The notes beneath the pieces are model-generated. The model was not told the origin of the DNA. It did not search any database and saw nothing but the letters and a program-made list of their open reading frames with translations. Positions 17,361 to 38,967 of a stretch of DNA of 64,000 nucleotides are shown in pieces; positions within the stretch are counted from its first letter, which is position 1; each line of letters begins with the position of its first letter. The position numbers and the translations under genes were made by a program. The stretch is from Myxococcota bacterium (GTDB lineage: Bacteria; Myxococcota_A; UBA9160; SZUA-336). The DNA lies in assembly GCA_965247115.1 (NCBI GenBank), contig CBDFGR010000003.1, positions 1,472,001-1,536,000 on the forward strand, read 5' to 3'.

Positions 17361-17448
<88 letters not shown>

Positions 17449-17468
17449 CAAGACCTGGAGCTCCAGCG

Positions 17469-17558
17469 GGAGAGATGGCCGAGTGGTTTAAGGCGCACGG
17501 TTGGAAACCGTGTGTGCGTTTACGCGTACCGTGGGTTCGAATCCCACTCTCTCCGCCA
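17469..17558 (+). tRNA. tRNA-Ser(GGA)
   Basis: Anticodon arm CACGG-TT-GGA-AA-CCGTG, long variable arm, CCA end. Confidence 0.96.
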
Positions 17559-17613
17559 ATTTGCTACGTTGCGTGTCCCTCGGGCCGGGCTGTCCGGGGA
17601 TAGATCTGGCCCT

Positions 17614-17690
17614 GCGCCCGTAGCTCAGCTGGATAGAGTGCCAGGTTGCGGACCTGGAGGCCGCAGGTTCGAATCCTGCCGGGCGCGCCA
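17614..17690 (+). tRNA. tRNA-Arg(GCG)
   Basis: GCGCCCG acceptor, anticodon arm CCAGG-TT-GCG-GA-CCTGG (anticodon 17648-17650), CCA end. Confidence 0.93.
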
Positions 17691-35006: not shown

Positions 35007-36836
35007 TCAGGGTGCCCGGACTCTCTCCGTCGGTATACGCACCTGTCCACCAGCATAGTGGAATCGGAGCTGCCTGCTCTGGTCGTAGAGCATCACCTCT
35101 CGAACTCCCTGATAATGAAGCCGCCTGGCGATCTCTGTTCCTTCCGCGCGCTGCTCCTCCACCGACATCTTCTTCCACCCGGGCAAGATCGCGCCGACGA
35201 AGAGACGCCCGAAGCCCTGCTTGCGGTAGCCCGAATCGATGTAGCTCGACAGGTCCGCAAGCCTCTCCTCGCTGAAGAGATCAATGGGCCGCGGCTTGAT
35301 CATCTGGAAGCGCATGCCCACCGAGCCCAGCAGCACCACGAACAGGATAGCAGCTGCGCTGATTCGCTTGGCCTTTGTGTCGAGGAAGACGATGGAGGGG
35401 CGCCAGCTCCCCGCATCCGCCGCGGCCCGGAGCGCCTCCCCGCCACCTTCGATAAAGCTCGACTCGGCGCCGGCCTTGCGCGTTGCGTTTCGGATCAGCT
35501 CCGCCAGTGAGGCGTACAGATAGCGATGCTTCGTTGCCGAGATCTCGCGCGCATCGGCGTAGGCACCTTGAGCGATCTGCTGCTTCGTCGTCTGTCGGAC
35601 CTGCTCGTTGAGCTTGCGCACCCAGTCGGACTGGAGAACGGTCGGGCGAAGGCCGAGCTCCACATAGCGTGATCCGAGCGTCGGGAGACGCCGGATCGCG
35701 ATCCCCGTTGCCACCATGCTGCGAATGAGCTCGTCGATGGGCGTCGCGCCACTCGAGAATGCACTCTCCTCGCGCTCGCTCAGCTCCAGGCCTCCGATGA
35801 TCTCGGAGAGGAGCTCGCTGTCGTTTGTCTCGCCGCGCAGACCGTTTGTCTCGCCGCGCAGACGTCCGGCGATCGCACCCTCGACGCGCGCGATGCCCTC
35901 CCGCTGCGAGTCCACACGCTCTTGCGTGGTCTCTCTGGGCTCTACCACAGCGGGTGTCGGGACCACGGGATCGCGCCCGTCGATCCCACTCAGGGTCAGC
36001 GTCTCGTCGTCGTCGAGCTCCACCTCGATCGACAGGATGAGCTCCGAGTCGGCGATCCAGTCGTCCGTCCGCGTCTGGTCGAGCAGATCCTCGTGACGGT
36101 TCCAGACCGCGAGGTTGTAGCCGACGACGGCGCGCAGGATCGACGGGGAGAAGACGGACTCGCCGAGTCCCTGCTTGAGCTCGCGGATCTCCGCCAGCAC
36201 GGGGCTGACGTTCGTGGCCTCCTGCAGGCGCTGCGCCGCGTCGTCGAAGGTCTGGGCAACCTGGACGGGATCTGTGTCGGGATCCAGGGCATCGCCGAGT
36301 GCGTTGGAGTACAGGGTCAGTGCGGGACTGACTTGAACGGGATCGCGCACCATGCGGCGCACGCCAGCACACTGCTCCGACGCGATCATCGTGACCAGGT
36401 ACTCGGTGATCCTGTCGCGACCCGCGCGGCCGCTCTCTGTGCCCACGCAGAGATCCAGCAGGGCGATGACCTCGTCGGAGTAATCGAGGAAGGTCGTCGG
36501 GAGGGTGGCTCGCAGCTGGGAGAGGGGGATCCCCTCGAGCGCGGCGAGCAGCTCCTGCTTCAGCTCGGCGAGACGCAGATCGATCTCGGCGAGCTCGGGG
36601 CGCAGCTCGGGATCACCCGGAGCCGGCTCCCCGCCCCGCGCCAGGCACTTGCTGAGCACACCGAGCCGCTCGCGGATCTCGCGCCAGCGCTCGGGCGCCG
36701 GTAGGGCGCCCGGCGCGCAAGCCGATGGCTCGAGTGCTCGCTGGGCGCCCCGGAGTGCGGCGAAGCTGCGAACTCGTTCTAAGACTTCGAGCTTCGCCGC
36801 AGAGGCCTGACCGGACTCGGACATGGACGCCATCAC
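35007..36836 (-). CDS. Hypothetical protein with C-terminal transmembrane helix
   Basis: 609-aa ORF with GGAG SD, helical composition and a single TM segment (ISAAAILFVVLLGSVGM). Confidence 0.75.
   Translation of the reverse strand: MMASMSESGQASAAKLEVLERVRSFAALRGAQRALEPSACAPGALPAPERWREIRERLGVLSKCLARGGEPAPGDPELRPELAEIDLRLAELKQELLAALEGIPLSQLRATLPTTFLDYSDEVIALLDLCVGTESGRAGRDRITEYLVTMIASEQCAGVRRMVRDPVQVSPALTLYSNALGDALDPDTDPVQVAQTFDDAAQRLQEATNVSPVLAEIRELKQGLGESVFSPSILRAVVGYNLAVWNRHEDLLDQTRTDDWIADSELILSIEVELDDDETLTLSGIDGRDPVVPTPAVVEPRETTQERVDSQREGIARVEGAIAGRLRGETNGLRGETNDSELLSEIIGGLELSEREESAFSSGATPIDELIRSMVATGIAIRRLPTLGSRYVELGLRPTVLQSDWVRKLNEQVRQTTKQQIAQGAYADAREISATKHRYLYASLAELIRNATRKAGAESSFIEGGGEALRAAADAGSWRPSIVFLDTKAKRISAAAILFVVLLGSVGMRFQMIKPRPIDLFSEERLADLSSYIDSGYRKQGFGRLFVGAILPGWKKMSVEEQRAEGTEIARRLHYQGVREVMLYDQSRQLRFHYAGGQVRIPTERVRAP
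35822..35863. repeat. Exact 21-bp tandem duplication (CGTTTGTCTCGCCGCGCAGAC x2)
   Basis: Read directly; in-frame (LRGETN repeated). Confidence 0.9.
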
Positions 36837-36860
36837 TCCCCTCCTTGTGTGCTCGCCCCG

Positions 36861-37319
36861 CTAGCGGTGGCGCGGGTGGAGGCGGGCGGGCGCGTTGCTC
36901 GGGTTGTCTGTTCCCTGGTTGGGGCTGTTGTCCCTGCCGCTCCCGAGGCCGGGGTTCGTGCCGTCGCTGAGGCCAGAGCGGCTGTTCTCCCCGGGGGCCT
37001 TGTCCGGCCTGTTGTGGTCCGCACCCGACGCGAGCGTGCTCCCGTCATCGGCCTCCTCCACGCCGTCACCGGGGTCGCCGTCGGCTATGGTCGGCGCGGG
37101 ACCGTCCGGTACGAGCGCACCGGGCACACCATTGGTGGGCGGCACGGTCCCGGTCGGTCGTTCGATCTCCACGGAGTTGCCGAGGATCTCGTCCGAGAGC
37201 AACAGGATCTCTCCGGAGTCGACCTGTCTGTCCGCGGCGCTGGTGCCAGGGGCAAGCAGGACGAGCGAGAAGCTCAGCATTGCTGCTGCGCTGATTCCGA
37301 TCAATTGCATCAACTTCAT
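36861..37319 (-). CDS. Secreted low-complexity Gly/Asp/Asn/Pro-rich protein
   Basis: Signal peptide (MKLMQLIGISAAAML...TSAA), GAGG SD, C-terminal SGLSDGTNPGLGSGRDNSPNQGTDNP. Confidence 0.7.
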   Translation of the reverse strand: MKLMQLIGISAAAMLSFSLVLLAPGTSAADRQVDSGEILLLSDEILGNSVEIERPTGTVPPTNGVPGALVPDGPAPTIADGDPGDGVEEADDGSTLASGADHNRPDKAPGENSRSGLSDGTNPGLGSGRDNSPNQGTDNPSNAPARLHPRHR

Positions 37320-37362
37320 CTGGATCACCTCTTCTTTCAATCGAACCACTGCAACGACCGGG

Positions 37363-37848
37363 CTAGTCCTTCAGGATGATGTTGTTCTCAATCATCAGGA
37401 CGTCGAGGACATCGTCACCGGGCACGAGATCCGCCGTGGCGACCACGGAGAAGTTCGCGTCCGGATTTGCGTTGATATCAAAGGTCTGGAGCTGGAAGCG
37501 GTAGTAGTTGCCGTCAATCTGGGTCGGGGAGATCACCACGCCGCCTTCGAGCTCGAACCCGATGCGCGCGAACGTGTCGCCGTACTGACCGACCTCGGCA
37601 ATGTAGGCTGTCTGTGCGGTGTGCATTCCGCCGAGAGCCAGGTAGGCCTCGGCGCGATGTGTGCGCAACATGATGTGCTTGGCGCGTGGAATCGCCACGG
37701 AGGCGAGCACCCCGATGATCGCGATGACCAGCAGGAGCTCGACCAGTGTGAAGCCGACGGGGGAGCTGCTGCGGGGTGAGCCGGGCAGGCATCGCGCGGC
37801 GTGCGCGCTCTTGTTGGCGCGCGCGTTCGCCTCTCGAGACTTGAACAT
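37363..37848 (-). CDS. Type IV pilin-like protein (prepilin N-terminal cleavage/methylation motif)
   Basis: G/FTLVELLLVIAIIGVLASVAIP, RAEA. ATG 37848 after AAGGGAG. Confidence 0.9.
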   Translation of the reverse strand: MFKSREANARANKSAHAARCLPGSPRSSSPVGFTLVELLLVIAIIGVLASVAIPRAKHIMLRTHRAEAYLALGGMHTAQTAYIAEVGQYGDTFARIGFELEGGVVISPTQIDGNYYRFQLQTFDINANPDANFSVVATADLVPGDDVLDVLMIENNIILKD

Positions 37849-37854
37849 CTCTCG

Positions 37855-37948
37855 CTCCCTTCGATAGCCGTTCGACCCGTCTGTCTGTGCAGGTGAGGGC
37901 ACTGGCTTTGCGTCCCCGTCTTTCGGCGGGTTTGCCATTGTCGAGGAG
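37855..37948 (-). ncRNA. c-di-GMP-I (GEMM-I) type riboswitch aptamer, G20/A47/U92 variant
   Basis: Minus strand CTCCTCGACAATGGCAAACCCGCCGAAAGACGGGGACGCAAAGCC...GGCTATCGAAGGGAG: GGCAAACC, GAAA tetraloop, GGGACGCAAAGCC and P3/P1 closure. Confidence 0.85.
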
Positions 37949-38118
37949 CCGGCAGAACAAGTCGGCCTGTTCTCTCAGCTCGAACTCCTCATCGGAGTCC
38001 GGCGCGAGAGTCTTGAATCGATCTCGCCTGGGTGCTGGCGAGCGGAGTCGAGCGAGAAGCCCAAAGACTCGGCTACAGGGGAGCCTTCACGAAGAACTGC
38101 GGCAGAGCTGCCGGTCGC

Positions 38119-38967
38119 TCAGTCCTTCTCGAGCCAGCGGTTGAAATGCGGAGTGCGCTTCTCCCGGAACGCGGCCCCGCCTTCGCGCGCGTCTGGATGG
38201 TGGTCGGACACGGCGGTCTTCGCGGCAATCTCGTCGAGCGCCTGGTCGAAGGTCATCTCGGCGGCGTTGTAGATGGAGCGCTTGAGCAGGCGCATGGCGA
38301 CCTGCGGCCCGTTGGCGAGCTCGCGCGCAAACTCCAATGCCCGCTCCTCTAGGGCGTCGGGGGGCACCACCTCGTGCACCAGGCCCAATTCGAACGCCTC
38401 CTGGGCTGTGACGATCCGCTTGCGCATCAGGAAGTCCATGGTGCGCGCAACGCCGAGCAGCTGCACGAGCAAGAACTGCCCGCCCTCGTCCGGCAGCAGT
38501 CCGAAGCGCAATGTCGCGCTGCCCATGCGTGCGTCCGACGAGGCGATACGGAAGTCGCAGCTAAGGGCCAGCGAGAAGCCGGTCTGGATCGCGACCCCGT
38601 TCATGGCGGCGATCGAGAGCTTGTCGAGGTTTCGCAGCGCCTGGTTGACCGGCTGCGACAGCCCGCGCAGACCGTCGTACGTACCGATCGGTGTGTCATG
38701 GCCCGGGGGGATGTTCGGCACCAGCACGGCGTTCGGGTCCGTCGCATGGCCTGAGATGTCGTCTCCCGCCGAGAAGGCGCGCCCGGAGCCGCTGAACAGG
38801 ACCACGCGAACCGCATTGTCAAGCTGGGCCTGGATCAAGGTCTCGACCAGGTCGCGCTTCAGCGGCGCGGTCATCCCGTTCAGTCGCTTTGGCTCATTGA
38901 ATTGGATGTGCGCGATCCCCGGCTCCTGCAGGCTCACCTCGAAGCCCCGGAAGTTTCCCGTCTCCAT
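38119..38967 (-). CDS. Enoyl-CoA hydratase/isomerase family protein
   Basis: RAFSAGDD, AAMNGVAIQTGFSLALSCDFRIA, GLLPDEGG, AFREKRTP. Confidence 0.92.
   Translation of the reverse strand: METGNFRGFEVSLQEPGIAHIQFNEPKRLNGMTAPLKRDLVETLIQAQLDNAVRVVLFSGSGRAFSAGDDISGHATDPNAVLVPNIPPGHDTPIGTYDGLRGLSQPVNQALRNLDKLSIAAMNGVAIQTGFSLALSCDFRIASSDARMGSATLRFGLLPDEGGQFLLVQLLGVARTMDFLMRKRIVTAQEAFELGLVHEVVPPDALEERALEFARELANGPQVAMRLLKRSIYNAAEMTFDQALDEIAAKTAVSDHHPDAREGGAAFREKRTPHFNRWLEKD

Follow-up and report, generated by a model that had tools for sequence, protein, structure and literature searches.

The leader of a type IV pilin-like gene in a Myxococcota genome (G000) carries a GEMM-I aptamer in which U replaces C at pocket position 92. 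The aptamer belongs to the GEMM-I structural family but lies outside the canonical G20/A47/C92 type and outside GEMM-Ib, and its U92 is a recurrent, conserved natural variant with a studied laboratory counterpart. The leader probably acts as a translational OFF riboswitch for c-di-GMP, transcribed from a sigma28-type promoter, with a weakened pocket and a raised threshold. The window is the whole 64-kb stretch of DNA that was analyzed.

Identity of the Aptamer

Direct reading of the minus strand gave the same letters as the original prediction had transcribed. A cmscan of the whole window placed the c-di-GMP-I model (RF01051) at 37946-37860 on the minus strand, scoring 60.5 bits (gathering score 35, E 2.4e-9) over the full length of the model (positions 1-87 of 87). 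The window contained four Rfam matches, this one and three tRNAs; three consecutive tRNA genes lie at 17361-17687 on the plus strand. Pocket bases were numbered as in Vc2, by counting along the sequence and from the Rfam alignment, which also put G21-C46 at 37935/37910, A91 at 37865 and C93 at 37863. The features given for GEMM-I in PMC3764141 (A47, G14-C93, C44 with bulged G83 and a GNRA loop on P2) were all present, and the aptamer occupied the 5′ leader of a gene, as RF01051 members do. The GEMM-I riboswitch with G20/A47/U92 that had been proposed from the letters was therefore borne out by both the score and the aligned bases (Table 1).

Narrower classes did not accommodate it. The two Rfam variant models scored below their cut-offs: c-di-GMP-I-GGC (RF03167) reached 54.1 against 59, with A at base 47 where G is expected, and c-di-GMP-I-UAU (RF03168) reached 43.6 against 65.9, with G at base 20 where U is expected. 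The canonical c-di-GMP pocket of Vc2 (G20/A47/C92) was rejected by the U at 37864, and the GEMM-Ib pocket (A20 with C92) by the G at 37936 and the same U. The canonical 11-nt tetraloop receptor was absent from the aptamer and a CCC/GGG stem stood there instead. Because only about half ("almost 50%") of GEMMs have a clear receptor (Weinberg 2007, PMC1950547), this receptor is not defining for GEMM-I.

Table 1. Features of the pilin leader and the adjoining genes (window coordinates).
Feature	Position	Strand	Basis
-35 box TCAAG, predicted sigma28/FliA-type promoter	38012..38016	-	motif match
-10 box CCGAT, predicted sigma28/FliA-type promoter	37991..37995	-	motif match
Predicted 5′ leader hairpin adjoining P1 upstream	37954..37973	-	ViennaRNA prediction
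GEMM-I / c-di-GMP-I aptamer, CCC/GGGUCG P3 subtype	37860..37946	-	RF01051 match
P1 5′ strand (anti-Shine-Dalgarno), G14 = 37942	37942..37949	-	sequence; subtype pairing
G20	37936	-	alignment; Hoogsteen partner of ligand alpha base per PMC6140456
P2 with GAAA tetraloop 37924-37921, C44 = 37912, C-A mismatch C37926/A37919	37910..37935	-	
A47, stacks between both ligand bases	37909	-	sequence, Rfam alignment
P3 with bulged G83 (37873), CCC/GGG stem replacing 11-nt receptor, variable tip	37866..37907	-	
U92, replaces C that pairs beta guanine of c-di-GMP	37864	-	U under consensus C in Rfam alignment
P1 3′ strand holding Shine-Dalgarno GGGAG (37859-37855)	37854..37863	-	
Type IV pilin-like gene, 161 aa, 32-aa leader, G|FTLVE site	37363..37848	-	PF07963, TIGR02532 above cut-off
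Small Pro/Gly/Asp-rich ORF, signal-like start	36861..37319	-	43 bases 3′ of pilin stop

Conservation of the Aptamer

The same-genus genome G002 also carried U92, and both promoter boxes were unchanged there. A contig from run X7 (study P4) spanned 37810-38400 with six differences, none of them at 37864; runs X3 and X10 spanned this position too, and no difference was found there among those listed. The relative and the X7 contig ruled out an assembly error or a private mutation, and C at 37864, which would have pointed to either, was seen in neither. Between the two genomes the core, from P1 to the Shine-Dalgarno minus the P3 tip, showed 0/85 differences, against 4/11 changed bases in the P3 tip, 17/65 four-fold sites of the pilin gene and 20/109 far-upstream bases. 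By this contrast, the core is under strong purifying selection.

The original prediction had allowed for decay, on account of the C-A mismatch in P2 and the diverged receptor. The mismatch position was unpaired in 4 of the 75 class copies of the CCC/GGG subtype; the odd receptor region was subtype-wide, and its pairs were kept in 69-75 of the 75 copies. Decay was ruled out by the conservation of the core, the kept tertiary contacts and the covarying pairs. More broadly, it is very improbable that the leader is decayed or ligand-blind and sets nothing but a fixed translation rate. The P2 mismatch, the missing 11-nt receptor and the non-canonical base 92 would fit such a leader, as would Vc1, in which G at the equivalent of base 92 abolished binding in vitro, with expression not lowered (PMC4744006); against it stand a core fully conserved in a diverged neighborhood, the retention of all tertiary contacts, and a receptor form common to 101 aptamers of several lineages.

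Distribution of Base 92

In the class, 117 RF01051 matches were found in 66 of 151 genomes, and 115 of them were genotyped, with those of G064 and G065 left out; 15 further matches from a phylum search lay outside the class and were not counted. The CCC/GGG subtype comprised 75 copies: 32 G20/C92, 17 A20/C92, 17 G20/U92, 7 G20/G92, 1 C20/C92 and 1 U20/G92. Outside this subtype there were 40 rows, comprising 36 G20/C92, 2 C92 with base 20 unparsed and 2 weak matches with doubtful ends; C92 was present in 38/40 of these classical rows, which came mostly from one locus. The exact subtype pattern, searched over all species representatives, gave 99 loci with 101 distinct aptamers (54 G20/C92, 23 A20/C92, 14 G20/U92, 9 G20/G92 and 1 U20/G92); these aptamers partly coincide with the class copies and were chosen by the pattern itself. 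Among named records, the most similar aptamers belonged to Myxococcota or Deltaproteobacteria. A20 together with U92 occurred in 0/75 class copies of the subtype and in 0/101 pattern aptamers.

The rarity of U92 had thus been overstated, as it was carried by 17/75 subtype copies and arose repeatedly. On an aptamer tree made without both pocket columns, which was poorly resolved, U92 required 11 changes, at least three of them forced by supported branches, against 15.5 with shuffled labels. Homologous genes with differing bases at 92 were found; two PilZ genes, one with C92 and one with U92, were too distant to count as orthologs. All 17 U92 copies retained C44-G83, A47 and a GNNA loop, and they formed 17.4 of 18 core pairs compared with 17.2 for G20/C92, in a table where one misaligned G20 row was counted as A20. 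The subtype structure covaried, with 92.4% of cells paired and 15/26 pairs changed on both sides (30-47% paired in slid controls); over the 75 copies P1 was paired in 82.7% of cells with 5/8 pairs changed on both sides, and P3 in 96.7%. No compensating partner of base 92 was detected, the best mutual information with any column being 0.23 bits without a pairing pattern.

G000 had seven RF01051 matches, all with G20. Base 92 was C in four of them, U in two (this pilin gene and an HDOD gene) and G in one. The second U92 aptamer (L002, C3:1449629-1449717, minus strand) preceded the HDOD-domain gene, and U92 was present in 4/4 HDOD-gene copies from two genera (L002, L034, L043 and L027). Three C92 aptamers (L003, L006 and L007 at C3:1242164, C3:1237615 and C1:204066) preceded PilX-like minor pilin genes. 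The G20/G92 aptamer (L005, C3:1233046-1233149, minus strand) and its relatives were found before a DUF4124 plus aspartyl-protease gene, and it was kept in G002 with 1/69 core differences. All eight G92 rows had U at position 89, which was found in 11/50 C92 rows. Two close subtype aptamers were seen at L020 (G017:C9:19000-19375), with U and then C at base 92, and at L191, both with G92. A20/C92, the cGAMP-type pocket, preceded a lytic transglycosylase SLT gene in 12 of its 17 class copies (L013, L014, L022, L222, L226, and others), and the A20/C92 aptamers of the class are candidate cGAMP riboswitches outside Geobacter.

These patterns also bear on whether U92 is near-neutral for the ligand response, with excess affinity or kinetic control absorbing the change and the base kept by chance or for the ligand-free fold. 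We consider this improbable. The repeated origins of U92 and the differing base 92 of homologous genes agree with it, and at the four-fold rate a single site would have a ~74% chance of being unchanged between G000 and G002. It is opposed by the constant U92 before the HDOD gene in two genera, by C92 throughout nearly all classical rows (mostly one locus), and by the 30-fold reduction of ligand-dependent RNA in Vc2 C92U (10.1101/617340).

Predicted Promoter and Pilin Gene

A sigma28-type promoter motif was newly found ahead of all seven aptamers of the genome. A shared upstream motif was first apparent before four pilin leaders. Scanning for TMAAG-CCGAW with spacers of 12-19, we found that TMAAG-N15/16-CCGAW preceded 57 of 126 subtype aptamers, compared with ~0.06 in shuffles and none on the reverse strand; in G000 it preceded 7/7 aptamers and one of the two flagellin genes. 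This motif matched the Bdellovibrio consensus TTAAG-N16-CCGATA, a promoter mapped by 5′-end sequencing (PMC3627812). Two FliA/WhiG genes scored above cut-off in the genome, as did two flagellins. At the present locus, transcription would start near 37984-37980, ~135 bases 5′ of the AUG. Together, the motif and the aptamers suggest a regulon of FliA to which a second layer of control is added at translation.

The pilin-like protein had the class III signal, with Gly-1/Phe+1, Glu5 and a hydrophobic helix. It was rejected as the major pilin PilA (NF041775 equivalog, 51.6 against 400), and longer PilA-like paralogs were present elsewhere in the genome; a motif scan gave 15 pilin-like starts, including the longer ones. 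By its sequence, the 161-aa protein is an accessory pilin and not one of the main PilA-like paralogs. Its orthologs had leaders of three pocket types, G20/U92 in G000 and G002, A20/C92 in G021 and G20/C92 in G014 (clade support 98/97), and no aptamer was seen in the leader of the G020 ortholog. The small downstream ORF had no Pfam or NCBIfam match and is possibly co-transcribed with the pilin gene; its middle part differed in the run X3 contig. An in-frame AUG within the aptamer (37938) was open through 37849 into the pilin gene without a stop. This frame is probably due to chance, because a P3 tip one base longer in G002 breaks it.

Proposed Switch Mechanism

P1 pairs 37949-37942 with 37863-37854 and thereby covers GGGAG, which lies 6 bases 5′ of the AUG at 37848; the AUG stands 11 bases past the Rfam match. 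This arrangement was general in the subtype: a Shine-Dalgarno-like stretch directly followed C93 in 64/75 copies, and the start codon lay 11-22 bases beyond C93 in 69/75, with a peak (n = 32) at offset 15. The original prediction was right that the 3′ strand of P1 contains the pilin Shine-Dalgarno, and this overlap supports the translational OFF switch it proposed. Transcriptional control was rejected, as neither a terminator-like site on the minus strand nor a sigma70-like promoter was found in 36700-38300.

In folds from the predicted start, the probability of G14-C93 was 0.01-0.23 and the Shine-Dalgarno was 0.46-0.79 unpaired. ViennaRNA predicted that the leader hairpin can extend and, when no ligand is bound, capture the outermost bases on the 5′ side of P1. 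The bound-like fold was 4.6-6.5 kcal/mol less stable than the ensemble, a cost that could be offset by the ligand and the tertiary contacts. Longer folds that began upstream of the predicted start paired the Shine-Dalgarno without ligand, and the ligand-free accessibility therefore depends on the start site. Two contig pieces were obtained from RNA run X20, both outside the aptamer.

When base 92 of this locus was changed to C, the predicted accessibility of the Shine-Dalgarno fell to 0.21-0.24 through a local hairpin. This could give U92 a role in the ligand-free fold even if it were near-neutral for the ligand. As a general breaker of the Shine-Dalgarno hairpin, U92 was rejected: the effect was predicted in G000 and G002, and no difference was seen between 17 U92 and 49 C92 copies. 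An alternative helix between the 5′ strand of P1 and the 3′ strand of P2 was predicted at the locus and rejected as a conserved mechanism, because it beat shuffles in just 28/75 copies.

The switch would then work as follows. The sigma28-type promoter would start the pilin mRNA ahead of the aptamer, and without ligand P1 is predicted to be mostly open and the Shine-Dalgarno reachable. By analogy with Vc2, c-di-GMP would bind at the three-way junction, with one guanine on G20, the other in a G-U wobble with U92, and A47 between them. Binding would close P1 over the Shine-Dalgarno and translation would stop. U92 would lower the affinity, and it would take more c-di-GMP to silence the pilin gene than the genes of the regulon that are under C92 copies; U92 is also predicted to weaken the ligand-independent hairpin over the Shine-Dalgarno at this locus.

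Ligand

In the published pocket, G20 reads the alpha base and C92 the beta guanine, and cGAMP sensors change position 20 to A (PMC6140456, PMC5888326). In Vc2, C92U lowered ligand-dependent RNA as noted above, with partial recovery in vivo at raised c-di-GMP (10.1101/617340). The double mutant G20A/C92U binds c-di-AMP, according to a table in PMC7288161, and it binds c-di-GMP at 4900 nM compared with 0.011 nM (PMC9049102). U92 can thus take an adenine, which makes the idea of cGAMP recognition in the original prediction chemically sound. No measured natural G20/U92 aptamer and no description of the CCC/GGG subtype were found in the literature searched, a set outside which key primary papers lie. 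Natural variation at 20 and 92 was reportedly noted by Smith in 2010, and the Vc2 C92U biosensor of Kellenberger in 2013 is said to have responded poorly to cGAMP.

The genome encoded nine GGDEF domains, of which at least five kept the canonical Asp and an intact GG(D/E)EF. One of the nine had the Hypr signature (Asn339, Ser348, GGDEF and Ala at the cross-dimer position; C2:1522505-1522981), in a receiver-GGDEF protein (L085, C2:1522451-1523920, minus strand). The combination of Ser348, GGDEF and cross-dimer Ala has been linked to mainly cGAMP (PMC6456294), and the best PDB match of the domain was 6D9M, with the same HLVGS stretch. The Hypr-type synthase that the original prediction had suggested looking for was thus found by its signature residues and its PDB match, and the host is predicted to make cGAMP as a GEMM-Ib host does. 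The genome showed no SMODS nucleotidyltransferase.

It is rather unlikely that the aptamer prefers 3′,3′-cGAMP or senses both ligands, with a guanine on G20 and an adenine in a Watson-Crick pair with U92, the reverse of the GEMM-Ib orientation; the Hypr enzyme of the genome would then switch the pilin gene off. Several observations would suit such a sensor. G000 has the Hypr signature and no A20 aptamer among its seven, and the pilin clade switches its pocket, the close ortholog in G021 being A20/C92 and that in G014 G20/C92. The lack of any A20/U92 copy would follow if either change by itself created one site for adenine, and A20 and U92 weakly avoided each other, sharing 2 of 38 genomes against 4.4 expected (P ~0.07). 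Yet the same lack is equally explained by the weak binding of c-di-GMP by the double change (PMC9049102). The Hypr motif was found in 139/151 class genomes (10/151 in the control), so it does not single out the U92 carriers and says little about U92.

In 80 titled loci, with 19 untitled loci left out, A20 was found in 1/33 Gammaproteobacteria-titled aptamers and 18/48 others, and U92 in 3/33 and 7/48; A20 was thus concentrated outside Gammaproteobacteria and U92 not clearly so, although related copies are not independent and 12/17 class A20 copies precede one gene family. Among five U92 genomes, the Hypr motif was absent from three gammaproteobacterial genomes and one 2.2-Mb genome, and present in one. 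In five further genomes, A20 carriers had the motif in 3/4 cases, and the one without it weakens this control. G92 copies do not fit an adenine logic, since G cannot pair adenine as U does; because they too were intact (7/75), position 92 looks relaxed in the subtype more than selected for adenine.

Thus, a weaker c-di-GMP sensor, the other option given in the original prediction, is likelier than a cGAMP route, because U92 does not track the Hypr-bearing group as A20 does. The c-di-GMP switch with a weakened pocket is also in line with the RF01051 match, the conserved core, U92 in Gammaproteobacteria, the tolerance of G92 and the remaining response of Vc2 C92U. It has to be weighed against the Hypr enzyme in a genome without A20, the A20/C92 leader of the close pilin ortholog, the pairing of U92 with adenine in Vc2 G20A/C92U and the slight avoidance of A20 and U92. 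The ligand-free pairing of the Shine-Dalgarno in longer folds, the local nature of the U92 hairpin effect and the expression of Vc1, not lowered by its changed base, also count against it.

Comparison with Known Systems

Vc2 of Vibrio cholerae, the type example of RF01051, has the same three-way junction, G20, A47, G14-C93, C44-G83, GNRA loop and position in the 5′ leader of a pilus gene, and the OFF logic proposed here is that reported for Vc2. The present aptamer differs in U92, in a CCC/GGG P3 stem in place of the 11-nt receptor, in an extended P1 formed by anti-Shine-Dalgarno and Shine-Dalgarno, and in the predicted sigma28 promoter. The Vc2 C92U laboratory mutant (PDB 3MUR, 3UD3 and 3UD4; listed as C92U in PMC10671752) has the same G20/A47/U92 pocket and retains some c-di-GMP response (10.1101/617340). 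It differs in being engineered and in its Vibrio scaffold. The structures 3UD3 and 3UD4 presumably hold linear G-A dinucleotides.

The GEMM-Ib aptamers of Geobacter (Gs1761 and Gm0970) share the fold, a lineage with Hypr GGDEF enzymes and pilus-type targets, and GEMM-Ib-like A20/C92 copies occur in the same CCC/GGG subtype (17/75). In GEMM-Ib, A20 is found with C92 kept (PMC6140456), in contrast to G20 with U92 here. RF03167 and RF03168 share a clan with RF01051 but scored below cut-off, and the present aptamer has A47 and G20. The name of RF03168 (UAU) presumably refers to U as the third base of the pocket. The FliA attack-phase regulon of Bdellovibrio shares the promoter consensus and the use of FliA for non-flagellar surface genes; its riboswitch-bearing merRNA has no downstream ORF (PMC3627812), whereas each aptamer here overlaps a ribosome-binding site.

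Implications

If the most probable reading is true, the leader would be a c-di-GMP switch of the ordinary kind whose threshold has been retuned. What is usefully added is a panel of natural variants built on the same scaffold: the seven leaders of this genome, which are matched in promoter and have C, U or G at base 92, and the pilin orthologs, whose leaders show three types of pocket. This panel makes the ligand of natural U92 aptamers easy to test with matched controls.

A bolder proposal, which we regard as unlikely, is that nature has reached 3′,3′-cGAMP sensing by a second route, G20/U92, with the ligand flipped relative to GEMM-Ib. Both pocket bases of one sigma28-driven translational OFF module would then have changed repeatedly (G20/C92, A20/C92, G20/U92 and G20/G92) in a class where Hypr enzymes are nearly universal; one regulon would read at least two messengers, and orthologs of one pilin gene would switch between them. 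If U92 does read cGAMP, A20 would not be the only mark of cGAMP riboswitches, and the ligand assigned to many annotated c-di-GMP switches would have to be changed.
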